The notes under the pieces are model-generated. The model worked only from the letters and a program-made list of their open reading frames with translations, did no database searches and was not told where the DNA came from. From an uncultured bacterium (GTDB lineage: Bacteria; Patescibacteriota; Microgenomatia; Levybacterales; UBA12049), in assembly GCA_963826535.1 (NCBI GenBank), contig CAWGXL010000002.1:96654-160653 (forward strand): a DNA stretch of 64,000 nt, in the 5' to 3' direction. The position numbers and the translations under genes are program-made. This document shows positions 3,734 to 64,000 of this stretch, piece by piece; within the stretch, counting starts at the first letter, position 1, and the number at the start of each line of letters is the position of its first letter.

Positions 3734-4273
3734 GTGATTGAGATGAGATTGAAAGAAGCTTTTGAAAGATATGTTCCAGAGGCGGCTAAAAAATTTATTC
3801 CTCTCGAAGCAGAATCTTTAGGGCATTTCGCAGACCTAGTTAAAAGCGAAAATTGCACCAGAGTTCGTACTATACCAGTCATAAAAATAAAGTATTATAG
3901 TCCTAGTTCAAGAAGAGCTATTCCCCTTGCAGAATACGAATTCTCAACAAGATATGCTTCAAAAACACGGGAACATAGACAAATTGTATTTAATGAGCCA
4001 CACACGCAGGGTAATTGTTATTTATATAATGGTGAGGATAAAGATAAATTTAGAAGGGCAGCGGAATTAAGGGGCCTTGTGACTGCTGAGGCTCGATTAG
4101 GAGAACTACATCATAGCCTAATTGTTGAACGAAATTATGGTGTGCGGACAGAAGGACCAACAAAACATTGGCATTTCAATGATAGAATCCAATTTCAAGT
4201 TGAAGTAGCAAGGCATGATATAAAGCCATACCCTAAATTAGTCCCTAAAAGCGATCTTAATCGCGCAGGTTAA
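3734..4273 (+). CDS. Hypothetical protein
   Basis: 179-aa ORF with no recognisable motif. Its 3' end overlaps the convergent rsmI by 17 nt. Confidence 0.45.
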   Translation: MIEMRLKEAFERYVPEAAKKFIPLEAESLGHFADLVKSENCTRVRTIPVIKIKYYSPSSRRAIPLAEYEFSTRYASKTREHRQIVFNEPHTQGNCYLYNGEDKDKFRRAAELRGLVTAEARLGELHHSLIVERNYGVRTEGPTKHWHFNDRIQFQVEVARHDIKPYPKLVPKSDLNRAG

Positions 4274-4982
4274 ACAGCAGAACAAACTCCCCTTTGGGAG
4301 CTATCTTTTGAAAATGCCTGAGCGCTTCTGAAATTTTTTCCCTGCGTATTTCTTCATGGACTTTAGTTAATTCCCGGCATAGAACTATTTGAATATCTCC
4401 TGTTTCCTTTTTTAATTCATCAAGCGTCGTAATTAATTTATGCGGAGCTACAAAGAGGATAACCGTTGATCTTATAAAGTCTTGTGATTTTTTAATGTTT
4501 TCAAAAAATTTCTGGCGGTGGCCTGATTTATGCGGAGGATAACCAAGAAATAGAAATTTATCCGTAGGTAATCCGGATAAAGCCAAGGCTGTTATTATTG
4601 CTGATGGGCCAGGAATTGCTTCGATTTTTATTCCCATGCGAATACATTCACGTATGAGTTTGAAACCTGGGTCAGAAATAGCAGGCGTACCCGCATCCGT
4701 CGCAAGCGCAATTTTTTGACCTTTTTGCAAAAGTGATAAAATTTCCGGGATCCGGCGTAATTCAATTTGCTCATAATAGGAGAGTAAGTGGGGTTTATGA
4801 CTTTTTGCACTGCCATTGCGAATCAAATCATGGTATGGCACACTCATCGTATCCAATAAAATACCTGTTCTTCGCGTATCTTCGCAAGCAATAACATCCA
4901 CTTCAAATAAAACTTTAATAGCTCGCAACGTAATGTCCTGCAAATTGCCAATCGGCGTTGATACAATATAAAGCGTCCCCAT
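4257..4982 (-). CDS. rsmI: 16S rRNA (cytidine1402-2'-O)-methyltransferase
   Basis: YIVSTPIGNLQDITLRAIKVL...DVIACEDTRRTGILL...GTPAISDPG are hallmark RsmI (tetrapyrrole-methylase fold) motifs. Length is 241 aa. Confidence 0.85.
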   Translation of the reverse strand: MGTLYIVSTPIGNLQDITLRAIKVLFEVDVIACEDTRRTGILLDTMSVPYHDLIRNGSAKSHKPHLLSYYEQIELRRIPEILSLLQKGQKIALATDAGTPAISDPGFKLIRECIRMGIKIEAIPGPSAIITALALSGLPTDKFLFLGYPPHKSGHRQKFFENIKKSQDFIRSTVILFVAPHKLITTLDELKKETGDIQIVLCRELTKVHEEIRREKISEALRHFQKIAPKGEFVLLFNLRD

Positions 4983-39639: not shown

Positions 39640-42000
39640 CTATAATCTTGCCCGTTGGGAGATTTCGGCTTCGATTACCTCGGCGTTGCGGCCGAATTTA
39701 AGTCTCGAGAGTTCTTTTATCAGGTCGGCGACTCTTACGTTGCTAAGTTCTTTTTCGCGGCTAATATCTTTAGTGGTATCAAGCGAGAAAGGCGGTACAG
39801 GCTCACCGTTTACCAGGGTTCTCATATAAGCATTATATTTGTCAACATTTATTAAATCTGTTTCATTAAACATCGGTTGGAATTCGCGCTGTAAATAGCT
39901 GGCATCATTGACGCCGACCCGGAATGAAGCAATTGTCCCCACGTTTCCGAAAATTGCGTTTTTAATCTCTTCCTCCATCTGGCCTATGAATTGATTTGCC
40001 ACGATAAGATTGAGGCGGTATTTACGGGCTTCGGAAAGGATTTGGGCAAAATCGGGAGTAGCGAAATTTTGGAATTCGTCAACGTAGAGGTAGAAGTCTC
40101 GTCGTTTGTCCATATCCATATCCTGGCGTGACATAGCGGCAACCAGTATCTTGGGAACTAAGACCAAGCCCAAAAAGCTGGCGTTTTCTTCGCCGATTTT
40201 TCCTTTAGATAAATTAATAAGAAGGATTTTTCTTTCATCCATAACTTTACGGAAATCGAATGAGCTTTTGGATTGGCCAATTATATTTCTTATCATTTTA
40301 TTTGTAACGAAACGGCCGAATTTAGAGACAATATAATCCATAACCTCGGATTTGTGAAAGTCGGATGTTGTCGCGATTTGATCAGTCCAGTAACGGCGGA
40401 TAATAGGATCCTGAACTTTGGGCAATAACTCCTGTACATAGGCTGGATCCGTAAGAATACGTACAACCTCAATAAAGGTGCTTCCCGGCTCGTACATGAC
40501 AGTTAACATAGCATTTCGAACAGCATGTTCAAAACGTGGTCCGATAATACCGGTTTTATTTGGATCGAAGAGCTTATACATTAACCCTATTATAGAGTTG
40601 GTAACAAAATGTTTTTGTTGTTCTGTCTGGGCATCAAGCATATTGAACCCCATCGGCCGCTCTAAATCTGATGGATCAAATAAAATAACTTCTTCGGCGC
40701 GGTTGGGCGGAATTTGGCGCAATACATCTTCTACTAAATCTCCATGTGGATCAACAACGGCTATTCCTTCGCCCGCGTGAATATCTTGCATGATCATACT
40801 TTTAAGGAATTCGCTTTTTCCGGTACCTGTTTTTCCGATGATATACGTATGCCTTCTTCTATCGTCTTGGCTAACATATACTCCACGATTGAGACCACGG
40901 AATGTGCTTTTGCCAAGGTAAAGACCGCTTGTCGGTAGATTGGATGGCGCCGGTGCACGTTTGGATGTCAGCCAGTGAATACCGGGCGTTGTTATACTTT
41001 TATTTGGGAAATGGAAGATGGTTGCGAGTTCCTCACTGGTATGTAATGATGACTGACCCCACAGCGGGAAGTATCTATAAATAAAATCATGCATAAAAAA
41101 ACCTTTCATGAGGTGTTTGTTTTTTCTGAAATAATTTTGACCGGCGTATTGACCGAAAGTATTGATAATATTATTTAAGTGTGATTGTGCTGCTTGTTTT
41201 GTAGTAGAACATACAACAATCCTTATAACAGTATCAAACCCAACTTTGTTGATAGAACCTTCAATGCCCTCAAGCTCTTTCGCATCGGTTTTATATTTAG
41301 CAGTTTCCGGGCTGGCTTCATTTTTTTTAGTTTTACTAATATATCCCCTCCCTGATTTTTTCCAGTGATCACCTGCAGGCCTGACCAATATTTGAATTGT
41401 CGCCCCTTCTCCTTCACCCATTTTTGCAAGGACAGAGGTAATCGATGACAACGGGTCAACCGGCATATCTTTGAAGACTCTTATAGGTATATAGGAACTA
41501 TTTTTCTGATGTAATGAAGCAAAAGCTACTTTTCCATTTTCAGTAAAGATTTGGTATTCAGTTCCTACTACGTTGCCCGCTTTCTGTTTTGCAGTTGGAT
41601 CATTGACCGGCACGACTTCAGCATCCGGATAGGAGCCATTAATTTGCTTTTCTATGAAATCCCGATGTTTATTCGGAACCCAGACATAGAAACGAATTTC
41701 ACCCGGAAGTCCTACGACTTCAAAAGACAGGTGAGGTTGTGTTTTAAAGAATTCGAGCCATCCGATTTCCCTAAGCGATGCAAGTCCCGAAAACATTTGC
41801 TCGGCGGCATCTATTTTGATCTCATTTTCCCGTGGAACTGTTACCTGCAATAGGGTCGAATTTAGTGACTCTTGTTCGCGGTTTCTATTCCGAAACCAGA
41901 TAAGCAATGTATATCCAAATAACCACAAAAACCCTATCGTAACTGAAATAACAATTAAAGTAATAATAACGGTTATAATGAGAGAATTTATATTATCCAT
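39640..42000 (-). CDS. Membrane-anchored P-loop ATPase of the type IV secretion coupling-protein superfamily (TraG/TraD/VirD4-like, with a TraM-recognition-type C-terminal region)
   Basis: N-terminal hydrophobic hairpin. Walker A YIIGKTGTGKSEF. Walker B LYVDEFQNF. C-terminal ...ANQFIGQMEEEIKNAIFGNVGTIASFRVGVNDASYLQREF resembles TraG-D_C. Confidence 0.65.
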   Translation of the reverse strand: MDNINSLIITVIITLIVISVTIGFLWLFGYTLLIWFRNRNREQESLNSTLLQVTVPRENEIKIDAAEQMFSGLASLREIGWLEFFKTQPHLSFEVVGLPGEIRFYVWVPNKHRDFIEKQINGSYPDAEVVPVNDPTAKQKAGNVVGTEYQIFTENGKVAFASLHQKNSSYIPIRVFKDMPVDPLSSITSVLAKMGEGEGATIQILVRPAGDHWKKSGRGYISKTKKNEASPETAKYKTDAKELEGIEGSINKVGFDTVIRIVVCSTTKQAAQSHLNNIINTFGQYAGQNYFRKNKHLMKGFFMHDFIYRYFPLWGQSSLHTSEELATIFHFPNKSITTPGIHWLTSKRAPAPSNLPTSGLYLGKSTFRGLNRGVYVSQDDRRRHTYIIGKTGTGKSEFLKSMIMQDIHAGEGIAVVDPHGDLVEDVLRQIPPNRAEEVILFDPSDLERPMGFNMLDAQTEQQKHFVTNSIIGLMYKLFDPNKTGIIGPRFEHAVRNAMLTVMYEPGSTFIEVVRILTDPAYVQELLPKVQDPIIRRYWTDQIATTSDFHKSEVMDYIVSKFGRFVTNKMIRNIIGQSKSSFDFRKVMDERKILLINLSKGKIGEENASFLGLVLVPKILVAAMSRQDMDMDKRRDFYLYVDEFQNFATPDFAQILSEARKYRLNLIVANQFIGQMEEEIKNAIFGNVGTIASFRVGVNDASYLQREFQPMFNETDLINVDKYNAYMRTLVNGEPVPPFSLDTTKDISREKELSNVRVADLIKELSRLKFGRNAEVIEAEISQRARL

Positions 42001-42006
42001 TTTTCT

Positions 42007-42534
42007 TTAAATTGAGGCTTGTTTATTTTGTTTTACATCTTTGACTGCATCCGGGTCGTATTTACACCATTGGTACATTATCATAGCCGCAAGCCAATGG
42101 GTTGAGTCTAAAAATTCAGTATTTTTTAACTTTTGCAGCGCTTGTGGATAATTCATTGGGAGGTGGATCGTACCGGTTGGAGTCTTGATAATTGGCGTTG
42201 AATCTACGGCAGGAGTAACTGCCGTAACCTTTTGAATTTCTTTTTCTAATTTTAACTCGCGGCCATCAGGACCATGTTCGACTATATTTTTTAATTCTTG
42301 CGGAATCATAACTTCGGGGGATAACGAAGTAGTTATTTCAGGCGTTACAGTTTCCGCGCTATGAGTGGATTCGGATACCGGCACAGCAATTGTTGGCTCC
42401 TGTTCTTTATTCCCGGTGATTACCGCCGGTTCAGGCATATCTCCGCTTTGTTGCCCAGCTGTTGCAGCCGGTTGACCCGTTATATTTGTTTGAGGTGGAA
42501 CTGTTTGTTTTTGTAATTGTTTTGGATCCTGCAT
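42007..42534 (-). CDS. Hypothetical protein with a disordered Pro/Thr/Gln-rich N-terminal half
   Basis: 175-aa ORF immediately upstream of, and co-oriented with, the ATPase. Confidence 0.45.
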   Translation of the reverse strand: MQDPKQLQKQTVPPQTNITGQPAATAGQQSGDMPEPAVITGNKEQEPTIAVPVSESTHSAETVTPEITTSLSPEVMIPQELKNIVEHGPDGRELKLEKEIQKVTAVTPAVDSTPIIKTPTGTIHLPMNYPQALQKLKNTEFLDSTHWLAAMIMYQWCKYDPDAVKDVKQNKQASI

Positions 42535-43850: not shown

Positions 43851-44000
43851 CTACTTTCCGGGCTTCCAACCGCAGAGTGGGCAGGCTGTTAAATCGCCTT
43901 TTTGAATATTTAGTGTATCTTCATCATCCGCCACCCATCCACATTCTTTGCAAATGATTTTGAAACAAACCTCACATTTATTAGTTTTATTAGAGCTCAT
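43851..44000 (-). CDS. Small zinc-ribbon protein
   Basis: CEVC...CKEC...CPLC motifs. Start placed at the internal Met to avoid overlap with the upstream gene. Confidence 0.35.
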   Translation of the reverse strand: MSSNKTNKCEVCFKIICKECGWVADDEDTLNIQKGDLTACPLCGWKPGK

Positions 44001-44008
44001 ATTATAGC

Positions 44009-44863
44009 TTAACAAGCATACGGAGCACTGCACCCATTTACAGGACATTTAATCCTGCCATTACTTATAGTTGCGTCGATATCAGCTACACCACAAACCG
44101 GGCAATTTTTGCAGTGTAAAGTCTTCTCCCCAAATGAAATTTTTTCTGAATCAACAACACCTAATCTTGGAGTTACTGAATTTACTACAACAGTTTTACC
44201 TGAAGCTCCTCCGCCACCAGCACATCCTGGCTGTTCCGCAATAGCATTCAATATACTTCCAAAAGACTTCACATCAATCTGATTTGGCTTATACCACGTA
44301 TCGGGTTTTAATATAACTCTTTGTTTTTTTGCCGCTTCTTCGGTATAGTACAACTGAGACATACGAAGAATTGTCGCAGCAATAGCTTTTTGTAAATCAT
44401 GCTTGGTTAGTCCCTCTTGCAGACAATAAACCTCAAAATCTGCGATCATTTGTTGCGTTTTCTCATTGAATTGATATAGCCTTTCGCCTTGCAATATATC
44501 CTTATATACATCCTCCCATCCTGTTTTTTCCTGTGTGACTGAGTTTTTAAAAGCATGAGTTGATCTAACTTTCTCTAAGACTCCCACCACATCACTCACG
44601 CTTTGTATCTCTTCACTCTCTCCCGGTTTTATAGCAGCAACTGCCTCTACATATTCTTCAATCGATGCCATGACCGGAAGTCTTTTTCCTGTAAGCCTGT
44701 AAATAACTTCACGACTTTCCTGATGTGTAAAGTTTGTTTTCACTGTATAGTTAGTAACTGAATCAGCTTTCTTCTGCATTATAAAAAAGTATGAATCGGG
44801 ATATGTTATTTGTTCACCACTATCTGTTGTTAATCCGGAATCTCCTTTTGGACTTGTCATCAC
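44009..44863 (-). CDS. Hypothetical protein with a C-terminal Cys-rich (zinc-ribbon-like) tail
   Basis: 284 aa, ending ...HCKNCPVCGVADIDATISNGRIKCPVNGCSAPYAC. Confidence 0.5.
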   Translation of the reverse strand: MMTSPKGDSGLTTDSGEQITYPDSYFFIMQKKADSVTNYTVKTNFTHQESREVIYRLTGKRLPVMASIEEYVEAVAAIKPGESEEIQSVSDVVGVLEKVRSTHAFKNSVTQEKTGWEDVYKDILQGERLYQFNEKTQQMIADFEVYCLQEGLTKHDLQKAIAATILRMSQLYYTEEAAKKQRVILKPDTWYKPNQIDVKSFGSILNAIAEQPGCAGGGGASGKTVVVNSVTPRLGVVDSEKISFGEKTLHCKNCPVCGVADIDATISNGRIKCPVNGCSAPYAC

Positions 44864-44876
44864 AGCTATTGACCCA

Positions 44877-45479
44877 TCAGGAGTATCTTTCGGAAAGAAA
44901 AAACTTTTTCATTGCCATTATGGATCTCTTTACTGATCCGTTTCTTTCATTTTCTGAAACAATCTCTTCCATATCTGAATATGAATTTCTTGAGCGCTCT
45001 GATTTTCCATAAGAACGATCTTCAAGCCTATTTGGATCTATAGGATCTCTAAAATATTTAGTAGGATAAACCAGATGATTTGATAAATATTCAAGCTTAA
45101 AGCCTAATAAGTCTTTTTCTGTTTTCTGAACCCAGTCCGACATATCTCCCGAACTATTTAGATCTTTTATTAAAGCGAGTTGTAATTTCATAATAAAACC
45201 GACTTCTGATTTTTTTCCCCGTAAATTGTACCAATCCTTAGGTAACTTTTCTTTTAGCCAGTTGTAGTCAAAGTGGCTGATATAATCTGCTAACGTACTA
45301 TTCTCGGTATGCTTTTTTTCTTTTACCTCTTCCTTTTTTCGTTGGCGGTAATTATCTAAATAAAATATTTTTGCGTCATGAATAGGTGGTCGGGGATACT
45401 CAATAATCCTTGTACGCGCAGTATTTCTTACTTTGAATAATTGTTCATCCTGGGGTAAATATCTCGCTGCTTCTACCAT
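44877..45479 (-). CDS. Hypothetical protein
   Basis: 200-aa charged protein. No motif recognised. Confidence 0.45.
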   Translation of the reverse strand: MVEAARYLPQDEQLFKVRNTARTRIIEYPRPPIHDAKIFYLDNYRQRKKEEVKEKKHTENSTLADYISHFDYNWLKEKLPKDWYNLRGKKSEVGFIMKLQLALIKDLNSSGDMSDWVQKTEKDLLGFKLEYLSNHLVYPTKYFRDPIDPNRLEDRSYGKSERSRNSYSDMEEIVSENERNGSVKRSIMAMKKFFLSERYS

Positions 45480-45502: not shown

Positions 45503-46045
45503 TTACTTTTTAATCCACTTTGTTTCTCTCTTTTTTTCTCTGAAATTAACGTATCGTGCAATGGTAAAGAAGAGATCGGATAGGCGGTTGAGATAAATCA
45601 TAATTGCAATATCTACATCTTCATTCTTCATCAAAGCAACAACGCGGCGTTCTGCTCGTCTGGCAATAGTACGGCATATATGTAATTGGGAGCCTGTTTT
45701 TCCTCCGCCCGGTAAAATAAAATTTTTAAGTGGCGGGAGCTTAATTGTCAATTTATCGATTAACTTTTCAAAATCCAGCGGACGTTTCTCAAGTCCGGGG
45801 ATCGGCTCCGCTTCCGGTGTAGATAAAGCTGATCCTATTTCAAATAGATCGTGCTGAATCTCTTCAAGTTCTTTTTTGAGTTGTTTAAATTTTTTTGGAG
45901 AAAGAAATGCAAGAGCAACACCAATGGAACTATTGAGCTCATCAATTGTGCCGTATGTTTCAACGCGCGCGTTTGCTTTAGAAACTCTAGTCCCATCGAT
46001 AAGCGAAGTTTTCCCTTTATCTCCGGTACGGGTATAGATTGGCAT
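45503..46045 (-). CDS. pduO: ATP:cob(I)alamin adenosyltransferase, PduO/MMAB type
   Basis: MPIYTRTGDKGKTSLIDGTRVSKANARVETYGTIDELNSSIG is the PduO-type N-terminal signature. The internal Met was chosen as the start. Confidence 0.75.
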   Translation of the reverse strand: MPIYTRTGDKGKTSLIDGTRVSKANARVETYGTIDELNSSIGVALAFLSPKKFKQLKKELEEIQHDLFEIGSALSTPEAEPIPGLEKRPLDFEKLIDKLTIKLPPLKNFILPGGGKTGSQLHICRTIARRAERRVVALMKNEDVDIAIMIYLNRLSDLFFTIARYVNFREKKRETKWIKK

Positions 46046-46078
46046 AATAGTTAAAAGTTTAAAGTACAAAATTAAAAG

Positions 46079-46627
46079 TTAAACTTGCGTATTGGCAGCT
46101 TGTAAGTTTTTTCTTAATCTCAAGGCTGCTTCGTAACCCATAAAGAATAAACCTGTATAGAGGAAGTCGCCGATTAATGTATTTCTAAAAAAAGGAATTG
46201 CTGCCACAAAACAGTCAATCAGCCCTGAAAATGTTTTAGGGTACATGGTACCAATTAGCCAAACACCAAAGTTAGTAATGAGATAAAAAAGTAAGGAAGA
46301 CAAAAGAGTGGCAATTATAATGTTTGTTGTTTTTTTGTGTTTTTTTAGCCAAATACCAATGCAGCCGATAAGTAAAAAACTGCCATAGACAAACACCATC
46401 TTTTCCATACCGTAAAAACCGAGAAATAGATCTGAAAAGAATAAAGCTAAGAGGGGAATTATGATAGCGTATTTTTTGTCCAGGTAAGCTCCGCCGAATA
46501 AAGCCATAGCGGCGATTGGAGCGATGTTGGGTGGGTGCGGAAGCAAGCGCAATACTGCGGCAATAGTGATTATTACCAGTGGACTAATGAAGTAGCTAAT
46601 TTTCAATTTAAAATTTTTAATTTTCAT
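46079..46627 (-). CDS. ECF-transporter S-component-like membrane protein. Candidate cobalamin/corrinoid substrate-capture subunit by context.
   Basis: 182 aa, 5-6 TM helices. LPHPPNIAPIAAMALFGGAY resembles ECF S-component N-termini. It lies between DUF4430 and pduO. Confidence 0.45.
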   Translation of the reverse strand: MKIKNFKLKISYFISPLVIITIAAVLRLLPHPPNIAPIAAMALFGGAYLDKKYAIIIPLLALFFSDLFLGFYGMEKMVFVYGSFLLIGCIGIWLKKHKKTTNIIIATLLSSLLFYLITNFGVWLIGTMYPKTFSGLIDCFVAAIPFFRNTLIGDFLYTGLFFMGYEAALRLRKNLQAANTQV

Positions 46628-46635
46628 TTTAGTAT

Positions 46636-46762
46636 TTCAAATTACTCAGATTATTGTCATTCCCCTGCACAGGGGAATCCAGAAGATATAAATAACTTTT
46701 CCTTATAACAAGTAAATGTAATAACTTGTTTTACCTCCTGGATTCCCGCGTTCGCGGGAATG
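46636..46762. repeat. Pair of imperfect inverted hairpin repeats flanking about 65 bp (REP/MITE-like or bidirectional terminator)
   Basis: Left: ttgtcattcccctgcacaggggaatccag. Right: cctggattcccgcgttcgcgggaatgacaa. Each is itself a hairpin and the two are mutually inverted. The centre has a further palindrome aacaagt...acttgtt. Confidence 0.5.
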
Positions 46763-46777
46763 ACAACTGCTTATGAG

Positions 46778-47152
46778 TTAATATTTTTCTATTTTCCATT
46801 CAATCGTATCTGTGTCTTGCGTTTGGTACTCTGCCGGTCCAACTTCTGACATTTTGCTGTTTATGTAAAATGCCCAGTATTCATGCTTGGAATTATCGGC
46901 CTCGCGGCCATTGATAGTTGTGACCAGGCCTGACTTGTCTTGTTTAATTCCATATTTTTGCTTGAGGAGTGTAAGAGCGTCTTTGCCTTTTTGGCCTTTA
47001 TATGTATAGTTTTGGGAGTGGGTTTCTTGTTGAACTGTTTTAGTAGGAGCAATTGTAGGTTTTGGCTGTATAAATAGCGGGACAGAAGAAATTAAAGCTA
47101 CGAATATAATAATTAAGAAGATATTTTTTTGGTTTAGAAATGTTTTTCTCAT
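46778..47152 (-). CDS. DUF4430-domain protein (transcobalamin/intrinsic-factor beta-domain-like, putative B12-binding)
   Basis: Signal-anchor, then ...GKDALTLLKQKYGIKQDKSGLVTTINGREADNSKHEYWAFYINSKMSEVGPAEYQTQDTDTIEWKIEKY fits the DUF4430 pattern (G..A...L......G.fv..InG.....W.fyvN....vGa..y.l.dgD.i.w.y). Confidence 0.65.
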   Translation of the reverse strand: MRKTFLNQKNIFLIIIFVALISSVPLFIQPKPTIAPTKTVQQETHSQNYTYKGQKGKDALTLLKQKYGIKQDKSGLVTTINGREADNSKHEYWAFYINSKMSEVGPAEYQTQDTDTIEWKIEKY

Positions 47153-47335
47153 AAAAAAATCCCTCTCGTTTTTTGTCCCGAGAAGGATACGTAATTTTGA
47201 TTCCAGTCAGGCACAAGTCTATGCCTGACCCCGCTCTGCGGGGCTCGGGACGAAATAATGCTCTCTAGTTTTCTGGCTATACAGTTGCGGCTCAGCCATG
47301 GATTTTCACCATGATTGCCTAAAAGAGCGTTCTAA
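47153..47335 (-). ncRNA. Putative cobalamin (B12) riboswitch in the 5' leader of the DUF4430 gene
   Basis: The minus strand reads ...UAGGCAAUCAUGGUGAAAAUCCAUGGCUGAGCCGCAACUGUAUAGCC.... This resembles the conserved aAGGGAAnccGGUGaaAAUCC...CCGCnACUGUa core. It is followed by hairpins GUCAGGCAUAGACUUGUGCCUGAC and CCCCGCagaGCGGGG. A final helix CCUUCUCGGG/CGAGAGGG sequesters the SD GAGAGGG 8 nt before the AUG. Confidence 0.5.
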
Positions 47336-47398
47336 TTTAAATCAATAATACACTTAATTTTTTGTTTTAGCAAGGTTTAATTTTTTTTAATTAGGGCT

Positions 47399-47845
47399 CT
47401 AAATTTTTGTTTTCAATTCCTTACGAAACTTGTTTATAAAATCTCCGGGTTTTAACACTTCAATCGGCTTTAGGTACTCAATAACACCCTTTTTGAAAAA
47501 TCCTTTATCAAAAGAAATAACGAACTGAATACGTGTAGCCCGTTTTGCTGCGGCAATGATTGGCTCATCTTTGAAATTACTAAACGCGTCGTGCGCTTTT
47601 TTAATCTCTTCTTCGGTGGCATCATCGACAATTGTAAGAATGTTTTTACTGAGTATCGCTTCAAATCTGAGCGTTTCTTGCTCATTCCCATCTTTTATAT
47701 TGTTATTTTGCACTTCAAATACGACTTTTTTCGAAATATAGCATTTCAGTTTCCCCCGTATACAGTAGTCTATAATGAACGCAGAGGCTCCCTTTTTGGA
47801 TCTACAGAATGACAGCAGTACCGATGAGTCAAGAAATATATGCAT
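47399..47845 (-). CDS. PIN-domain toxin (VapC-like)
   Basis: MHIFLDSSVLLSF... N-terminal PIN signature with acidic residues. Its start overlaps the stop of the upstream antitoxin gene. Confidence 0.6.
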   Translation of the reverse strand: MHIFLDSSVLLSFCRSKKGASAFIIDYCIRGKLKCYISKKVVFEVQNNNIKDGNEQETLRFEAILSKNILTIVDDATEEEIKKAHDAFSNFKDEPIIAAAKRATRIQFVISFDKGFFKKGVIEYLKPIEVLKPGDFINKFRKELKTKI

Positions 47846-48126
47846 TATGGGAGATCAGACAAACGTTTTTCAACCTCGGAAGCAAGCGGCTCCGGCAGCT
47901 TATCTTCTTTCACCCATTCATCAATTTGATTTTTGCTAAACTTCCTGTAGTCAGCATAATGTGCAACTTTTCTTGATTGAATAATGAGCTTATCTCCCTC
48001 CACTTTCGCTTTTGCCACGTCTCCTTCGTCAAGACCCAATTGTTTACGAAATTGTTTTGGAATAGTGATGACCCCTTTCGGCAAAATCTTGATCCATGTT
48101 TCCCGTGATTTAATTTGTGTTTGCAT
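47845..48126 (-). CDS. AbrB/MazE/SpoVT-family antitoxin
   Basis: KGVITIPKQFRKQLGLDEGDVAKAKVEGDKLII is a swapped-hairpin AbrB-type DNA-binding domain. Length is 93 aa. Confidence 0.6.
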   Translation of the reverse strand: MQTQIKSRETWIKILPKGVITIPKQFRKQLGLDEGDVAKAKVEGDKLIIQSRKVAHYADYRKFSKNQIDEWVKEDKLPEPLASEVEKRLSDLP

Positions 48127-59807: not shown

Positions 59808-60376
59808 TTAAATTTTCAAAGTTTTTTTTACAACGTTAATTCCTTCGACTAATCTATCAACATCCTCCTTAGTATTATATAAATACAGAGATGCTCTCGC
59901 TGTAGCCGGTACACCTAGAGCTTGCATAGTAATTTGTGCGCAGTGATGGCCGGAGCGGATTGCAATATTTTGTCCATCGAGAATTTGAGCGATATCATGC
60001 GCATGGGCGTTTGTTATATTAAAAGAAAAAATACCGAGCCGGTCTTTATATGTTTTTGGACCGTATAATTTTAAGAAAGGTAAATTTTTTAATTTTTCAA
60101 GTGCATATTTAGTTAGTTCATTTTCATAACTAGCGATTTTTTCCCAACCAATTTTTTTTAAATATGAAATTGAGGCTGACAAACCTACAACCCCTTCAAG
60201 ATTACCGGTTCCTGCTTCAAATTTATCAGGAAGATCAGCCCAAGTTGCTTTATTTTTGGTTACAGTTTTTATCATATGACTACCGACATGAAGCGGATCC
60301 ATTGTTTCGAGCAAATCTTCCTTTGCCCATAGCACACCGACCCCCGTTGGCCCAAGCATTTTGTGAGCGGAGAAGG
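59808..60376 (-). CDS. sufS: Cysteine desulfurase SufS, C-terminal half only. The 5' part is truncated at the low-GC/high-GC junction.
   Basis: ...AFSAHKMLGPTGVGVLWAKEDLLETMDPL...RSGHHCAQ.... The PLP-Lys motif (FS-A/G-HK) is the first recognisable element. Everything N-terminal in the ORF track is translated from unrelated high-GC DNA. Confidence 0.75.
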
Positions 60377-61328
60377 CAAGACGTTCTTCCTGGGGTATGC
60401 CGCGGTGCAGGCGGGAGGCGACCCCTCGCTGCTGTTCGATGACCTCGTCCGCAACGCGCCGGGATTCTCGAAGCCCTGGCTGCAAGCCGCCTTCGTGCTG
60501 CTCGTGGTCGGGTATGGAACGAAGATGGGATTGGCCCCCATGCATACGTGGAAGCCCGACGCGTATGGCGAGGCGCCGGGGATCGTGGGCGCCCTGATGG
60601 CCGGCGCCCTGACGAGCTGCGCCTTCCTCGCTCTTTCCCGGGTCTTTCACGTTCTGACCGCCGCGGGAGAGGGAGCATTTGCTGGGCGCATCCTGGTCGT
60701 GCTCGGGCTCTTCTCCATGGCCGTCGCCGGCGTGTTCACGGTCCGTCAGCGAGACCTGAAGCGCATGCTGGCGTATTCGAGCGTCGAGCACATGGGAATT
60801 CTGGCGTTCGGTCTCGGCCTCGGCGGCAGCGGTATCTTCGGCGCCTTCCTGCACATGCTGAACAACGGGATCATCAAGGGCGTGATGTTCCTCTCGGCCG
60901 GGAACATCCACCGGGCCTACGACAGCAAGTACGTCGAGGACGTGTCGGGGGCGCTCCGGCGCGTCCCGTGGTCCGGCGCCTTGTTCCTGGCCGGGTTCTT
61001 CGCGGTGACCGGCTCTCCGCCCTTTGGCCCGTTCGTCAGCGAGCTGTCCATTCTCAATGCCGCGATGGAACAGCATCGCTGGGGCGTCGCGGCGGCCATG
61101 CTGGGTCTGCTTCTCGTCGTGTTCATGGGGATGGGGGTGACGGTGCTCGGAGTCGTCCAGGGCGAGGCGGGGCCGAGCTCGAGCCAGTCCCGATTCCGGG
61201 ACGGCGTTCTCAACACATTGCCGGCGCTGGTGCTCCTGGCCATGTCGTTCGGCATGGGAGTGGCCATGCCCGACGCGATCCAGTCGATGGTCCGGGAGGC
61301 CGCGGACTACGTCGGAGGCCGGCGATGA
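60363..61328 (+). CDS. NuoL/NuoM/NuoN- or HyfB/HycC-like proton-translocating membrane subunit. C-terminal ~320 aa only, 5'-truncated at the junction.
   Basis: MGLAPMHTWKPDAYGEAPGIVGALMAG and KRMLAYSSVEHMGI are complex-I antiporter-subunit signatures. High GC. Its stop overlaps the next gene's ATG (ATGA). Confidence 0.7.
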   Translation: MSGEGKTFFLGYAAVQAGGDPSLLFDDLVRNAPGFSKPWLQAAFVLLVVGYGTKMGLAPMHTWKPDAYGEAPGIVGALMAGALTSCAFLALSRVFHVLTAAGEGAFAGRILVVLGLFSMAVAGVFTVRQRDLKRMLAYSSVEHMGILAFGLGLGGSGIFGAFLHMLNNGIIKGVMFLSAGNIHRAYDSKYVEDVSGALRRVPWSGALFLAGFFAVTGSPPFGPFVSELSILNAAMEQHRWGVAAAMLGLLLVVFMGMGVTVLGVVQGEAGPSSSQSRFRDGVLNTLPALVLLAMSFGMGVAMPDAIQSMVREAADYVGGRR

Positions 61329-62860
61329 GCCTCCGGGCGGGGCGCGCGGTCGAGAATGGCGAAGCCGTCCCGGTGGGCGAAGTCCCCGAGCTGTCGAACG
61401 AGGAGTTCCGGCAGGTCGTGATCGAGGCCTGCCGTCGGGAGCGGCGAGTGTCGGCGCTGTTCGGCGACTCGAGAGACGGCGAGGGTGGCCGCGATCTCGT
61501 GGAGCTCTACGCGGTACTGGCCGAGGAGGACACGGCGTCGCTGCTCCTCGCCCGGACCCGGATCGAGGCCGACGTCTTCGAGTCGCTGACGCCGGATTGC
61601 CCGCAGGTGCACCTGTTCGAGCGCGAGATTGCCGAGCAGTACGGGTGCGTGCCGCGGGGGCACCCGTGGCTGAAGCCCGTTCGGTTCCATGCCCCGTACC
61701 GTCGCCCGGCCTCGGGCGTCGAGACGGGGCCCAGGCCGCCCGTGGTCGGAGTGATGGACTACTACCGGGTCGAGGGCGACGAGGTGCACGAGGTGGCGGT
61801 CGGGCCCGTGCACGCGGGGATCATCGAGCCGGGCCACTTTCGCTTCCAGTGCCACGGGGAGACGGTGTTCCACCTCGAGATCTCGCTCGGCTACCAGCAC
61901 CGGGGCATCGAGCGGCACCTCGTCGGCGGTCCGACGCCCAGGACCGTGCACTACATGGAGACGCTCGCCGGCGACACGACGCTCGGTCACGCGACCGCGT
62001 ACTGCCACGCCGTGGAAGCCCTGGCCCGGATCCACGCCCCGGCGAAGGCGCAGTTCATTCGCGGCATCGCGCTCGAGCTGGAGCGACTGGCGAACCACGT
62101 CGGCGATCTCGGTGCTCTCGCGGGCGATGTCGGCTATCTGCCCACGGCCTCGTTCTGCGGGCGCATCCGCGGCGACTACCTGAACATGAGCGCGCTCTTG
62201 TGCGGGAATCGATTCGGCCGGGACCTGACTCGCGTGGGCGGCGTGCGCTTCGACATCGACGAAGCGGTGCGAGAGAGCCTTGTCACGCGGCTGGACGCCG
62301 CGGAGCGGGACACCGCGAGTGCCGTGAACCTGCTCTGGGAGTCGTCGTCGGTGATGTCGCGGTTCGAGGATGCCGGGAGCATCTCGGAGGAGGTCGCGCG
62401 GGAGATCGGTCTCGTGGGCCCGGCCGCCCGCGCCAGTGGCCTGGGACGCGACGTGCGAACCGACTTTCCCAAGGGCGTCTACCGCTACAGCCACGTGCCG
62501 ATGTGCACGTGGAGCACCGGTGATGTCTTTGCGCGGGCGTACGTCCGCTGGCTCGAGATCCAGAACTCGATCCGCTTTATCCGCGAGGAGCTTCAGGAGC
62601 TGCCGGAAGGCGCGCTCCAGGTGAGTGTGCCCATCTTGATGCCCGAGAGCATCGTGGTGTCGCTCGTCGAGGGCTGGCGTGGGGAGATCTGCCACGTGGC
62701 GATCACCGACGAGGCGGGGAAGTTCCGCCGCTACAAGGTCGTCGACCCCTCGTTCCACAACTGGTCCGGTCTCGCGCTCGCCCTCCGCGGACAGGAGATC
62801 TCGGACTTTCCGTTGTGCAACAAGAGCTTCAACCTGTCCTACGCGGGCTTCGACCTGTGA
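61325..62860 (+). CDS. NuoC-NuoD fusion / HycE-like large subunit of a group-4 hydrogenase-related complex, apparently lacking the [NiFe] cysteine ligands
   Basis: NuoC-like FEREIAEQYGCVPRGHPWLKPV, then GPVHAGIIEPGHFRF. At the L1 position it reads ETLAGDTTLGHATAYCHAVE (no CxxC). At the C-terminus it reads VDPSFHNWSG (no DPCxxC). Start taken at the ATG at 61325 rather than the track's 60548. Confidence 0.7.
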   Translation: MSLRAGRAVENGEAVPVGEVPELSNEEFRQVVIEACRRERRVSALFGDSRDGEGGRDLVELYAVLAEEDTASLLLARTRIEADVFESLTPDCPQVHLFEREIAEQYGCVPRGHPWLKPVRFHAPYRRPASGVETGPRPPVVGVMDYYRVEGDEVHEVAVGPVHAGIIEPGHFRFQCHGETVFHLEISLGYQHRGIERHLVGGPTPRTVHYMETLAGDTTLGHATAYCHAVEALARIHAPAKAQFIRGIALELERLANHVGDLGALAGDVGYLPTASFCGRIRGDYLNMSALLCGNRFGRDLTRVGGVRFDIDEAVRESLVTRLDAAERDTASAVNLLWESSSVMSRFEDAGSISEEVAREIGLVGPAARASGLGRDVRTDFPKGVYRYSHVPMCTWSTGDVFARAYVRWLEIQNSIRFIREELQELPEGALQVSVPILMPESIVVSLVEGWRGEICHVAITDEAGKFRRYKVVDPSFHNWSGLALALRGQEISDFPLCNKSFNLSYAGFDL

Positions 62861-62901
62861 TTCGTCTCCTTCGAGCTCGAGTGCTTCAGGGTCATCGGAC
62901 C

Positions 62902-63729
62902 ATGCCGTTTCCGGACGGGCCTCCGCCGGAGCTGCCCGCGCGGTTTCGCGGCCGGCCCGAGATCGACGCCGGCCTGTGCCGGTCCGGCTGCCGCGCGTGC
63001 GCGGAGGCCTGTCCGACCCAGGCGATCACGGGCGGGGAGTCGGCTCAGATCGACCTCGGCCGCTGCCTCTTCTGCACCGACTGCGTGGAGGCCTGTCCCG
63101 AGGGCGCGATCTCCTTCACCAATGACTATCGTCTCGCGGTGCGCCGGCGCGAGGACCTCGTGGTCTGCGGCAATCAGGATGCGCTCCCGCTCGCCGCGGA
63201 GCTGGGTGCGGAGCTGCATCGCCTGCTCGGGCGGTCGCTCAAGCTGCGCCAGGTATCGGCGGGCGGCTGCAATGGGTGCGAGCTCGATACCAATGTCCTC
63301 AACACGGTGGGCTGGGACCTCGGGCGGTTCGGGGTGCAATTCGTGGCGTCTCCTCGACACGCGGACGGCCTGCTCATCACCGGCGCGGTCTCCCAGAACA
63401 TGAAGCTCGCGCTCCAGAAGACCTACGATGCGATCCCCGCGCCGAAGATCGTCATCGCCGTGGGGGCATGCGCCGTCGGCGGCGGCCCGTTCGCCGGCCA
63501 CGCGGAGGTGAACGACGGGGCCACCGATCTGCTGCCGATCGACCTGCTGATACCGGGCTGTCCGCCGCACCCCCTCACGATCCTCGACGGCATCCTCCGG
63601 TTGCTGGGTCGAGTGGACGGCGGGAAGCCCCGGTCGAGTCCGGCGATCGAGCAACCCGGGCAGTCAGCGTGGCGAGCCAGGCCGGGTGGTGGCACGCCGC
63701 CCGGCCGTGTGGGCGAACAGCGGCCGTGA
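62902..63729 (+). CDS. Fusion of a 2x[4Fe-4S] ferredoxin (HycF/NuoI-like) with a NuoB/HycG-like small subunit
   Basis: CRSGCRACAEACP and CLFCTDCVEACP cluster motifs. Then GGCNGCE...VASPRHADGLLITGAVS...VGACAVGGGPF...IPGCPPHP (N2-cluster-type ligands). An alternative upstream start at 62815 is possible. Confidence 0.7.
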   Translation: MPFPDGPPPELPARFRGRPEIDAGLCRSGCRACAEACPTQAITGGESAQIDLGRCLFCTDCVEACPEGAISFTNDYRLAVRRREDLVVCGNQDALPLAAELGAELHRLLGRSLKLRQVSAGGCNGCELDTNVLNTVGWDLGRFGVQFVASPRHADGLLITGAVSQNMKLALQKTYDAIPAPKIVIAVGACAVGGGPFAGHAEVNDGATDLLPIDLLIPGCPPHPLTILDGILRLLGRVDGGKPRSSPAIEQPGQSAWRARPGGGTPPGRVGEQRP

Positions 63730-64000
63730 TCTGGCCCGTCCGTCGCCGGTCCTCACGCCACGCGCCAAGCGTGACCCGCGGGCCGGCCCTAGGCCTGCGG
63801 CCTGGCGATTCCTTGCAGCCCTAAATTTTAGGGCTGCGGGATACGCGGACGGCGCCGCGCAACCTATTCAGAATTGGAGGTCATCCGCCTGTCCAGCGTA
63901 AAGTATGGCGCGAGTGAGGAAAACGCCCGCACCATGAACCTGCTCCAGACCTGCATACCTGCCGACGCGCGCAGCGTCTGCCGTCTTACGGAGCCGGATA

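Follow-up and report, generated by a model that had tools for sequence, protein, structure and literature searches.

Within the window, by which we mean the whole 64-kb stretch of DNA that was analysed, the minus strand carries, read 5′ to 3′, a cobalamin riboswitch followed by the genes for a DUF4430 protein, a DUF6580 membrane protein and a PduO-type adenosyltransferase (Table 1). An earlier note on this DNA had proposed riboswitch, DUF4430 protein, permease and PduO in just this order, and all four elements were found where it had placed them. The identical gene order is repeated across many CPR genomes, and we consider it likely that a bacterium of the CPR/Microgenomates type uses the locus to salvage cobalamin (corrinoids) and that the class II riboswitch shuts this operon off when B12 is plentiful: The note's reading as a B12-riboswitch-governed module for cobalamin uptake and adenosylation is upheld and is reinforced by the comparative data. 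The operon very probably extends to a fourth gene, a frameshifted zinc-ribbon (ZnR) gene at 45479-44009.

Table 1. Features of the locus, listed from upstream to downstream on the minus strand, with the family or evidence behind each assignment
Feature	Coordinates	Strand	Family or evidence
Riboswitch, DUF4430 protein, DUF6580 membrane protein, PduO		minus	order 5′ to 3′
Promoter-like site, TTGCTA / 17 nt / TATTAT	47345..47373	minus	consensus scan; ~15 nt upstream of aptamer
Cobalamin riboswitch aptamer, class II (RF01689 AdoCbl-II)	47258..47330	minus	cmscan; covariation in 22 related aptamers
Expression platform	47153..47257	minus	sequence and folds, z -3.5 and -4.2
DUF4430 protein, 124 aa, N-terminal hydrophobic anchor or signal segment	46778..47152	minus	PF14478
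Palindromic insertion in the DUF4430-DUF6580 spacer	46654..46766		imperfect inverted repeat (repeat search)
DUF6580 membrane protein of 182 aa with the fold of an ECF S-component; predicted to transport corrinoids	46079..46627	minus	PF20221
PduO-type ATP:cob(I)alamin adenosyltransferase, 180 aa from ATG at 46045	45503..46045	minus	PF01923, TIGR00636
ZnR protein, N-terminal half	44877..45479	minus	blastp/tblastn to residues 53-189 of L014 orf474
ZnR protein, C-terminal half	44009..44863	minus	blastp/tblastn to residues 188-468 of L014 orf474

The adenosyltransferase and the DUF4430 protein had been recognized correctly. The adenosyltransferase matches PF01923 over its full length with 205 bits and TIGR00636 with 199.2 bits, the equivalog-domain cutoff of the latter being 108.45, and the N-terminal motif of PduO is present, as the protein starts with MPIYTRTGDKGKTS. 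The DUF4430 protein matches PF14478 with 52.4 bits at a cutoff of 23.8 (residues 58-122; Pfam). It had additionally been described as secreted or anchored and as transcobalamin-like: The N-terminal hydrophobic segment and the homology to a β-domain speak for this description, but the likeness is confined to the β-domain. In transcobalamin, haptocorrin and intrinsic factor, the C-terminal β-domain is homologous to the DUF4430 domain (PMC4350170), and the DUF4430 family profile matches the haptocorrin β-domain (4KKI, residues 329-433, E 1.1e-6) as well as the TC2 β-domain (5NO0) and intrinsic factor. Compared with these eukaryotic carriers, the window protein consists of the β-domain alone, tethered by the N-terminal hydrophobic segment; the α-domain, an α6/α6 barrel, is absent, DUF4430 being the sole significant domain match within the 124 residues. 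In the related CPR locus L024, orf576 fuses DUF4430 to an α/α-toroid domain, and orf472 of locus L050 matches toroid families only. The window protein can be aligned with the DUF4430 protein encoded beside CbrT in Lactobacillus and is predicted to be the counterpart of CbrS, i.e., an extracellular corrinoid binder. Bacteroides BtuH was rejected as a further DUF4430 protein, as the BtuH paper mentions neither DUF4430 nor transcobalamin.

Riboswitch aptamer and expression platform

The aptamer matches the full model (1-81) of RF01689 (AdoCbl-II) with 40.4 bits (E 3.4e-6; cmscan, Rfam), which exceeds the gathering threshold of 36.5 bits by just 4 bits. The earlier note had thus been right about the presence of a cobalamin aptamer but not about its class, which is RF01689 and not RF00174: For the latter (gathering threshold 31.5 bits), no match is listed in the window at threshold, and a permissive Rfam scan suppressed two matches of lower score from the same clan. 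The core that the note had quoted, UAGGCAAUCAUGGUGAAAAUCC...CCGCAACUGUA, was found in the sequence. In an alignment of 22 related aptamer sequences, 76.9% of the cells assigned to pairs are indeed paired, compared with 36-46% when the partners are slid. The covariation score amounts to 0.414 versus 0.16 in shuffles, with none of 500 shuffles reaching 0.414, and drops to 0.09-0.14 (maximum 0.143) with slid partners. Within the same alignment, all five pairs of the first hairpin (96% paired) have undergone compensatory changes and the inner P3 pairs covary; the outer helix P2 aligned poorly and helix 1 (P2 and P3) is just 55% paired.

With the class II cobalamin riboswitches (env8HyCbl, RF01689), the window leader shares the compact aptamer of ~75 nt, the P3-P6 helices and the conserved core. 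Every position that is invariant among the 22 sequences is retained, and in the cmscan alignment P2 and the short helix contain mismatches. Unlike in class II riboswitches, J1/3 is absent from the leader: This internal loop, which constitutes a second T-loop and is a determinant of AdoCbl/MeCbl selectivity, is nearly wholly missing due to a 6-nt gap deleting model positions 7-12. Since a functional Cbl-II riboswitch without J1/3 is on record (PMC6158498), its loss does not bar membership in RF01689. Upstream of the aptamer, the promoter-like site is a consensus match only; such sites are no commoner in this region than in shuffles.

Downstream of the aptamer, the leaders share with class II riboswitches a small conserved stem-loop in the SL13 position, a few nucleotides behind the aptamer (PMC5028336), which reads UCC-CGAGCA-GGA in most related leaders. 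The corresponding motif of the window, UCCCGAGC...AGG, starts at 47250 and differs from SL13 of class II riboswitches by an insertion: It is split by a hairpin insert of 15-16 nt (47243-47229), and a similar inserted hairpin is carried by leader L002. A second platform hairpin follows at about 47228-47206. The segment GUCCCGAG (47251-47244) is able to pair with CUCGGGAC (47182-47175), which makes it an alternative partner for the 5′ arm of the hairpin containing the Shine-Dalgarno sequence (SD). This terminator or SD-sequestering hairpin comprises 10 bp (47188-47179 with 47168-47159) and is followed by U7 (47159-47153) and the AUG at 47152; with GAGAGGG held in its 3′ arm, the terminal helix that had been postulated to hide the SD is real. 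According to the folds, neither the alternative helix nor the terminator/SD hairpin is disrupted, and both are very stable. Moreover, the design of the platform, consisting of a post-aptamer CCCGAGCAGGA motif, the complementary CUCGGGA and an SD-bearing hairpin with U6-8 and AUG, is repeated with differing stem sequences in 11 related leaders and, in a short form, in L019.

From these elements we propose the following switch. As long as the ligand is absent, the alternative helix would form and expose the SD, and the operon would be transcribed and translated. Upon binding of cobalamin, the SL13-like stem-loop would be captured by the aptamer, probably via the L5-L13 kissing loop known for class II, whereupon the terminator/sequestering hairpin would form and expression would end. 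By hand, an L5-L13 complementarity of 3 bp at most was found, and this pairing is not demonstrable because both loops are nearly invariant. In env8, the ribosome binding site lies within L13 itself, resulting in translational control, whereas the SD of the window is located in a separate terminator-like hairpin farther downstream, which implies a relay via the alternative helix. As J1/3 is missing and the SL13-like motif is interrupted, both the control by a ligand and the form of that ligand are uncertain. One might even suppose that the aptamer of this particular genome has decayed and no longer regulates, so that the operon would be constitutive and the riboswitch match a relic: Besides the two defects just named, the narrow margin over the RF01689 threshold and the mismatches in P2 and the short helix point in this direction, as do other disturbances of the locus, namely the palindromic insertion, the frameshift of the fourth gene and the presence of a toxin-antitoxin pair in the place of the relatives' nrdJ. 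We regard such decay as unlikely, given that all invariant positions of the aptamer are retained, that the alternative helix and the very stable terminator/SD hairpin are intact, and that both peculiarities have parallels, the loss of J1/3 in a functional Cbl-II riboswitch and the hairpin insert in leader L002.

The DUF6580 membrane protein and how it may be energised

The permease had been called S-component-like, which applies to its fold but not to its Pfam family: The protein matches PF20221 (DUF6580) with 183 bits and no other Pfam family is reported at E up to 0.1, so that it belongs to no named ECF S-component family, and the profile PF12822 (ECF_trnsprt) suggested for it gave no match. 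From end to end, the protein consists of a six-helix S-component fold, as in the B12 transporters BtuM and CbrT, without an extra domain, and its top structural match is BtuM. In searches of the PDB sequences, neither phmmer nor the DUF6580 profile matched BtuM at E up to 10, and a single-sequence DUF6580 search of the PDB found nothing. The only sequence-level link from DUF6580 to a characterised protein leads to CbrT, which itself falls in PF12822: hmmsearch connects the two over almost the full length at E 0.014, hhalign yields a probability of 86% (E 5e-6, 79 columns), and a handful of proteins match both Pfam models. This weak but specific similarity of sequence profiles, which is located in TM1-3, indicates that DUF6580 is a distant relative of CbrT and not a CbrT member. 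The DUF6580 alignment contains the invariant polar residues H31, N34, S65, D66, N119, N149 and D154; an invariant or nearly invariant cysteine does not occur among its 23 sequences. Among the papers searched for DUF6580/PF20221, none mentions the family.

The genomic context of the family ties it to cobalamin. Of 80 DUF6580 loci from several phyla, 49 carry a riboswitch of the cobalamin clan and none was found to carry one of another class; in 33 of the 80, the DUF6580 gene lies within a riboswitch-led co-directional unit. The neighbours include NrdJ (34/80), DUF4430 (31/80), PduO (26/80) and TonB-dependent receptors (23/80): In CPR loci, DUF6580 adjoins DUF4430, pduO and nrdJ; it is encoded directly behind TonB-dependent receptors in Ignavibacteria and Bacteroidota, and in diderm phyla it is the sole inner-membrane protein of the riboswitch-receptor operon. 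This last observation also bears on the question of whether DUF6580 could be a mere membrane accessory, for instance a platform on which the DUF4430 protein docks or an enzyme modifying corrinoids (decyanase or reductase), with another system performing the transport. BtuM is itself chemically active through Cys-dependent decyanation (PMC6072759), and the invariant polar residues of DUF6580 could be catalytic. Nevertheless, an accessory role appears very improbable in view of a protein that is made up entirely of the S-component fold, lacks a conserved cysteine, stands alone in the inner membrane of the diderm operons and is accompanied in none of the 80 loci by the gene of another transporter, be it BtuCDF or a different ABC system.

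How the putative transporter DUF6580 might be energised was assessed from the surrounding genes. The absence of ECF A/T components from the window, which had been stated before, was confirmed: Neither ABC ATPase nor EcfT genes were detected in the 64 kb by Pfam analysis of ~60 ORFs and a motif scan. Among 521 ORFs of the 80 loci, 2 are ABC-ATPase-like, neither of them adjacent. We favour transport without an ECF module, which would proceed by toppling of the S-component. A precedent is provided by BtuM from Thiobacillus denitrificans, a solitary S-component-like B12 transporter and decyanase (Rempel et al. 2018, PMC6072759; PDB 6FFV, 8OVV), whose Cys80 is the cobalt ligand and essential for binding and decyanation and for which an adenosyltransferase (BtuR) has been proposed to trap the vitamin (PMC6072759). 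BtuM and DUF6580 are alike in being small membrane proteins of ~20 kDa with no linked ECF module and, at the family level, in being encoded near a TonB-dependent receptor, a cobalamin adenosyltransferase or both. They differ in that no sequence similarity is detectable between them, in that Cys80 has no counterpart in DUF6580, where no cysteine is conserved, and in their distribution, which is mostly Proteobacteria for BtuM and CPR, Ignavibacteria and Bacteroidota for DUF6580.

The missing adjacency of an ECF module is, however, no proof of ECF independence, since CbrT, the closest relative by sequence, requires such a module and in Lactobacillus, too, the module is not adjacent to cbrT. DUF6580 might accordingly be a conventional group II ECF S-component that docks on a shared EcfAA'T encoded elsewhere, in which case the same gene set would support an ATP-driven, CbrT-like B12 import. 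We judge this possibility to be somewhat improbable. It draws on CbrT being the only characterised protein linked to DUF6580 by sequence, on a gene order equal to cbrS-cbrT-pduO and on the position of the similarity, as it is through TM1-3 that S-components make contact with EcfT. It is countered by the absence of an EcfT gene, both from the window and around the 80 DUF6580 loci, and of an adjoining ABC ATPase, by BtuM as the top structural match, and by the DUF6580 genes behind TonB-dependent receptors in Ignavibacteria and Bacteroidota, which is the context described for solitary BtuM (PMC6072759).

Relation to the Lactobacillus cluster and proposed pathway

The nrdJ-cbrS-cbrT-pduO cluster of Lactobacillus with ECF-CbrT is said to have been predicted by Rodionov in 2009. 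For L. delbrueckii, the cluster and the B12 transporter ECF-CbrT have been described (Santos et al. 2018, eLife, PMC5997447; PDB 6FNP). In L. helveticus (L081, L082), the genes for a class II ribonucleotide reductase, DUF4430 (136 aa), CbrT (174 aa) and PduO (186 aa) follow each other in that order, which matches the window in the order as well as in the sizes of the last three proteins (124, 182 and 180 aa, respectively); the upstream position of nrdJ is the same as in related CPR loci. The locus is a variation on this gene cluster already described in lactobacilli and not a novel type of system. The differences concern the membrane protein (PF20221 here, PF12822 there), the control by a riboswitch in the CPR version, whereas the L. 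helveticus cluster has no Rfam match, and the ECF module, which in contrast to ECF-CbrT was not found for DUF6580 in the window and the flanks of 80 loci. Furthermore, the window lacks an adjoining nrdJ, and the ZnR gene is additional.

In most related loci, the module adjoins the gene for NrdJ; this gene is absent from the 64-kb window, and the toxin-antitoxin pair occupies its place. In the ~60 kb of CPR sequence within the window, no B12-dependent enzyme (NrdJ, MetH, mutases) was found at all, so that the consumer of the coenzyme is assumed. Two candidate assignments were rejected: The ORF of ~800 aa that precedes the module in related loci is not the counterpart of the window's ClpB-like protein but NrdJ, and the window's sole TP_methylase ORF (4257-4982) is not a corrin biosynthesis gene but RsmI.

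Taken together, the pathway may be envisaged as follows. Outside the cell, the tethered DUF4430 protein would bind the corrinoid and hand it over to DUF6580, which would move it across the membrane, in the version that we favour by ECF-independent toppling of the S-component. PduO would then trap the vitamin as adenosylcobalamin, as has been proposed for BtuM and BtuR, and the product would most likely be used by the class II ribonucleotide reductase NrdJ, encoded outside the window. The downstream frameshifted ZnR gene would be a member of the same regulon.

CPR bacteria (Patescibacteria) have tiny genomes, do not make most cofactors and are thought to be reliant on neighbours or hosts. Owing to this dependence, the supply of B12 for class II ribonucleotide reductase is central to CPR biology. 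Literature searches on ECF transporters in Patescibacteria and on CPR together with cobalamin riboswitches returned nothing relevant. The locus and its relatives offer a concrete and testable B12 route, in which DUF4430 would bind the vitamin at the surface and DUF6580 transport it, joined by PduO and all under the control of a riboswitch. They also suggest a probable function for DUF6580, a Pfam domain that occurs in thousands of proteins, including ones encoded behind BtuB-like receptors in diderm phyla, and make it an added candidate beside the known B12 importers BtuCDF, ECF-CbrT, BtuM and BacA. The family comprises roughly 2,900 genes. Current understanding is not overturned by this; a known scheme is widened to new protein families and lineages.

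The zinc-ribbon gene and the palindromic insertion

The ZnR gene lies 23 nt downstream of pduO, and its frameshift, read in the sequence, is located near 44897-44880. Alignments place a G-C-x-G-G-G motif and a C-terminal CxxC...C zinc ribbon in the C-terminal half; a fold relative of the protein was not detectable. In related loci, the ZnR gene invariably succeeds pduO and in five of nine cases possesses a riboswitch of its own; ahead of the window gene, no second aptamer was found even at E up to 5. The riboswitch-linked zinc-ribbon protein is a lead toward a further B12-handling step. Putting the two unfamiliar families together, we tentatively suggest a broader scheme that is speculative as a whole: DUF6580 would be the third family of B12 transporters with an S-component fold after CbrT and BtuM, would work ECF-free and without the Cys ligand of BtuM, perhaps via the invariant His31, and would serve as the main B12 importer of the cytoplasmic membrane in many CPR, Ignavibacteria and some Bacteroidota, while ZnR, whose gene stands under a separate B12 riboswitch in several genomes, would act in the cytoplasm as a new factor of B12 handling, for example a reductase, a dealkylase or a chaperone of PduO or NrdJ.

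Several "half" ZnR representatives among the homologues raised the idea that the split recurs in other genomes, but the one that was checked sits at a contig end. Finally, the spacer between the DUF4430 and DUF6580 genes harbors the palindromic insertion, each arm of which holds its own GC-rich palindrome. In orthologous operons this insertion is absent and the spacers are short. It is transcribed within the operon, and its RNA forms a predicted hairpin of -53 kcal/mol (z -6.1).

Layout of the operon and its riboswitch

The earlier note had read this stretch as a compact cobalamin-salvage module under a B12 riboswitch. Its coordinates and quoted RNA core proved accurate when the minus strand was read through 47373-44009, and the observation was confirmed and its interpretation supported, with four corrections: the class of the riboswitch, the family of the permease, the resemblance to transcobalamin, which is confined to the β-domain, and the extent of the operon. 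The locus is of value because it gives DUF6580 a well-supported functional assignment and offers a lead to ZnR, a B12-linked Zn-ribbon protein encoded downstream of pduO.

Features of the cobalamin operon in the window
Feature	Position	Strand	Remark
Promoter-like site	47373-47345	minus	
Aptamer, 73 nt	47330-47258	minus	
Structured spacer, 105 nt	between aptamer and 124-aa ORF	minus	
DUF4430 ORF, 124 aa	47152-46778	minus	
Spacer with large palindrome, 150 nt	between 124-aa and 182-aa ORFs	minus	
DUF6580 ORF, 182 aa	46627-46079	minus	
PduO ORF, 180 aa	46045-45503	minus	188 aa from upstream TTG
ZnR N-terminal ORF, 200 aa	45479-44877	minus	23 nt past pduO
ZnR C-terminal ORF, 284 aa	44863-44009	minus	

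An Rfam scan of the whole window at gathering thresholds returned three matches, two tRNAs and RF01689 (AdoCbl-II, cobalamin clan), which coincides with the aptamer and covers the full model at 40.4 bits (gathering threshold 36.5; E 3.4e-6). RF00174, the family proposed, was not listed at its gathering threshold anywhere in the window. Because the score margin is small, we sought independent support by aligning the window aptamer with 21 RF01689 matches from related loci. RNAalifold on these 22 aptamers gave two hairpins with many compensatory changes; under the full Rfam-type architecture 76.9% of the pairs are standard, compared with 36-46% for slid partners, and the covariation score of 0.414 exceeds both shuffled alignments (0.16; 0 of 500 as high) and slid versions (at most 0.143). 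Little is contributed by the outer helix P2, whose alignment is poor. The J1/3 internal loop, which influences AdoCbl/MeCbl selectivity in class II cobalamin riboswitches and is missing from some functional members (PMC6158498), is absent from the window aptamer in the Rfam alignment. In a related locus (L016, 1743-1955), an apparent second, tandem Cbl-II-like aptamer (…GGGUGAAGCUUGUGAAAUUCAAGCACUGUGCCGCAACUGUAAU…), not reported at gathering threshold, lies in the leader that separates the RF01689 aptamer from the ZnR-type gene.

The RNA downstream of the aptamer folds more stably than shuffled sequence (z -4.2). Its last element is a terminal hairpin of 10 bp, AUCCUUCUCG / CGAGAGGGAU (47188-47179 with 47168-47159), whose 3' arm contains the SD and is followed directly by U7 and AUG, which bears out the proposed SD-sequestering helix. 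Folding also revealed that GUCCCGAG (47251-47244) is complementary to CUCGGGAC (47182-47175), a pairing that would break the terminal hairpin. In related CPR leaders, the motif directly 3' of the aptamer, YCCCGAGCAGGA, is nearly invariant and capable of folding into a small stem-loop (UCC / GGA); it is followed by a complementary CUCGGGA and by an SD-containing hairpin with U6-8 and AUG. This arrangement is shared by the window and 11 relatives (L003, L006, L012, L013, L014, L016, L024, L025, L034, L042, L050), and L019 has it in shortened form. In the window the motif is interrupted by an inserted hairpin of 15-16 nt (47243-47229), and a similar insertion is found in L002. When a class II riboswitch binds cobalamin, the kissing loop that L5 makes with SL13, a stem-loop further downstream, is stabilised (PMC5028336), and the conserved post-aptamer stem-loop is in the right place for SL13. 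From this layout and the known kissing loop we infer a shut-off model: bound ligand would hold SL13, a held SL13 would block the alternative helix, and the terminator/sequestering hairpin would then form and turn the operon off. The L5-L13 pairing itself was looked for by hand and could not be shown.

The DUF6580 membrane protein and its partners

The first and third proteins were assigned as proposed: the former matches DUF4430 (PF14478, 52.4 bits) and, like its relatives, has an N-terminal hydrophobic segment; the latter is unambiguously a PduO-type adenosyltransferase. Transcobalamin consists of an α/α barrel and a DUF4430-type β-domain. The DUF4430 family profile matches the C-terminal β-domains of haptocorrin (E 1.1e-6), transcobalamin and intrinsic factor, and the description as transcobalamin-like is therefore right for the β-domain only. 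Some CPR loci encode a larger protein between riboswitch and DUF6580, beside or in place of the small DUF4430 protein (L024 1708-3438; L050 2070-3488; L010, L027, L032, L060). That of L024 combines DUF4430 with a prenyltransferase/squalene-cyclase-type α/α toroid and a C-terminal membrane anchor, that of L050 (orf472) matched toroid families only, and the remaining four, of which L027 carries an LPDTG motif, were grouped with these by BLAST.

The permease, which had been read as ECF S-component-like, matches no named ECF S-component family and instead belongs to PF20221 (DUF6580, 183 bits); a structure model from 23 homologues reached pLDDT 85. Searched against PDB sequences, the DUF6580 family profile had a sole, nearly full-length match (E 0.014), chain A of the ECF-CbrT entry 6FNP, which has 182 residues and is labelled 'Membrane protein'. 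We take this chain to be CbrT, the Lactobacillus S-component for B12, on the grounds that proteins closely homologous to it are ECF S-components of Lactobacillus whose genes lie between a DUF4430 gene and pduO. The chain belongs to PF12822; hhalign pairs it with DUF6580 over TM1-3 (86% probability, E 5e-6), and some CbrT homologues also match PF20221 and some DUF6580 proteins also match PF12822. The invariant polar residues of DUF6580 include His31, Asn34, Ser65, Asp66, Asn119, Asn149 and Asp154. The solitary B12 transporter BtuM is defined by a conserved cysteine that ligates cobalt (PMC6072759); the DUF6580 family alignment contains no conserved cysteine, and the family therefore lacks this ligand. 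The literature searched does not mention DUF6580, of which an earlier in-silico mention under another name is possible.

In L. delbrueckii, CbrT is encoded in an nrdJ-cbrS-cbrT-pduO cluster (Santos et al., PMC5997447), and in L. helveticus a gene for a 136-aa DUF4430 protein lies between class II RNR and CbrT, with pduO next. Judged by gene order, the window trio is thus the CPR counterpart of cbrS-cbrT-pduO. It differs from the Lactobacillus cluster in its transporter family, in its riboswitch (none was found in the latter by Rfam scan), in the additional downstream gene ZnR and in nrdJ, which is part of that cluster but is not adjacent in the window.

Scanning one genome per species gave at least 566 DUF6580 loci, of which the best 80 were analysed with 3.5-kb flanks. 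Represented among these 80 are CPR lineages (Levyi-, Woese-, Woyke-, Shapiro-, Saccharibacteria and others), Ignavibacteria, Bacteroidota and a small number of further phyla. Rfam scans placed a cobalamin-clan riboswitch in 49 of them, almost always on the DUF6580 strand, and no other riboswitch class in any of the 80. In 33 of the 80 loci DUF6580 is downstream of the riboswitch and any intervening genes run in the same direction (in 5 of these 33 it follows immediately), and NrdJ adjoins in 34. The usual CPR order is nrdR, nrdJ, riboswitch, DUF4430 (or the larger anchored protein), DUF6580, pduO, sometimes a second riboswitch, and a Zn-ribbon protein of 360-550 aa, the upstream ORF passing the NrdJ equivalog model (590 bits; cutoff 400); in Ignavibacteria and Bacteroidota it is RF00174, TonB-dependent receptor, DUF6580. 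ABC ATPase-like ORFs account for 2 of the 521 ORFs in the 80 loci, neither adjacent. DUF6580 is thus the constant membrane component, and its partner is either a tethered binding protein (CPR) or an outer-membrane receptor (Ignavibacteria, Bacteroidota). A constant DUF6580 with a varying partner is as expected of a cytoplasmic-membrane B12 translocator, and corrinoid transport is predicted.

In a Saccharibacteria locus (L033, 34-3998) an RF01482 (AdoCbl) riboswitch precedes the DUF4430-DUF6580 pair, with a B12-binding radical SAM gene further upstream in place of nrdJ. The NrdJ gene of the closed Levyibacteriota genome CP066685.1 (L019, 9-3065) contains an intein that bears a LAGLIDADG endonuclease domain.

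The Zn-ribbon gene downstream of pduO

The operon very probably extends beyond the module of the earlier note by a fourth gene, ZnR, here in two ORFs. In related loci pduO is followed by single proteins of 430-520 aa, whose N- and C-terminal halves these two ORFs match. They are separated by a frameshift beside a gaaag run near 44897-44880, where removal of one base gives ...KKFFLSEDTPDGSIAVMTSPKG..., which fits the consensus; the frameshift reflects either a sequencing error or a pseudogene. The family comprises 387 clusters at E ≤1e-3 among 1.84 billion representatives, matches nothing in Pfam, NCBIfam or PHROGs, and shows the invariant motifs E-R-x-G, S-P-x-G-x-x-G and G-C-x-G-G-G besides a C-terminal Cys-rich ribbon. 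All nine HMM-detected members in the best 80 of at least 566 loci follow pduO, five with their own cobalamin riboswitch directly upstream. ZnR belongs to the B12 regulon; a role as reductase, dealkylase or chaperone is speculation. Overlapping the gene end is a 65-aa Cys-rich mini-ORF (43851-44048, minus) with 49% identity to the C-terminal zinc ribbon of L009 orf431, from another ZnR subgroup; this mini-ORF may be the remnant of a second copy.

Other features of the window

Upstream, the operon is flanked by a PIN/MazE-type toxin-antitoxin pair, a 136-aa ORF and a ClpB-like ATPase. The pair (47399-48126, minus) comprises a PIN-domain toxin of 148 aa and a MazE/AbrB-type antitoxin of 93 aa, with a one-base overlap of their ORFs, and lies directly upstream of the riboswitch promoter, where most related CPR loci have nrdJ. 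The spacer from the DUF4430 gene to the DUF6580 gene contains an imperfect inverted repeat of 113 nt (46654-46766) with its own GC-rich palindrome in each arm (ATTCCCGCGnnCGCGGGAAT type). The repeat folds as RNA into a hairpin of -53 kcal/mol (z -6.1); it matches Rfam RF02625 (WsnRNA46) over the full length but below threshold (35.2 bits; gathering 65.3), occurs once in the window and is not present in orthologous operons. It resembles a REP/MITE-type insertion.

The only tetrapyrrole-methylase-family ORF in the window (4257-4982, minus) was considered as a corrin enzyme and rejected, being RsmI, the 16S rRNA 2'-O-methyltransferase (TIGR00096, 208 bits; cutoff 168). Towards the end of the window (60300-64000), GC jumps at about 60,350, where values near 0.38 give way to 0.63-0.70. 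On the low-GC side an Aminotran_5 gene (59808-61076, minus) retains just the C-terminal half; on the high-GC side a Proton_antipo_M gene (60363-61328, plus) lacks its N-terminus, and the high-GC part encodes complex-I/hydrogenase-type subunits (a 49 kDa/30 kDa fusion, a 20 kDa subunit and ferredoxin). The window therefore joins two unrelated sequences.

Downstream of the B12 module, a VirD4/TraG-like coupling protein of 786 aa is preceded by a 175-aa ORF (39640-42534, minus, for the two together). In L013 (4628-7501) and L042 (4577-7410) an ORF of ~790 aa likewise follows pduO with a ~160-aa ORF ahead, and that of L013 matches TraG-D_C, which suggests conserved synteny.
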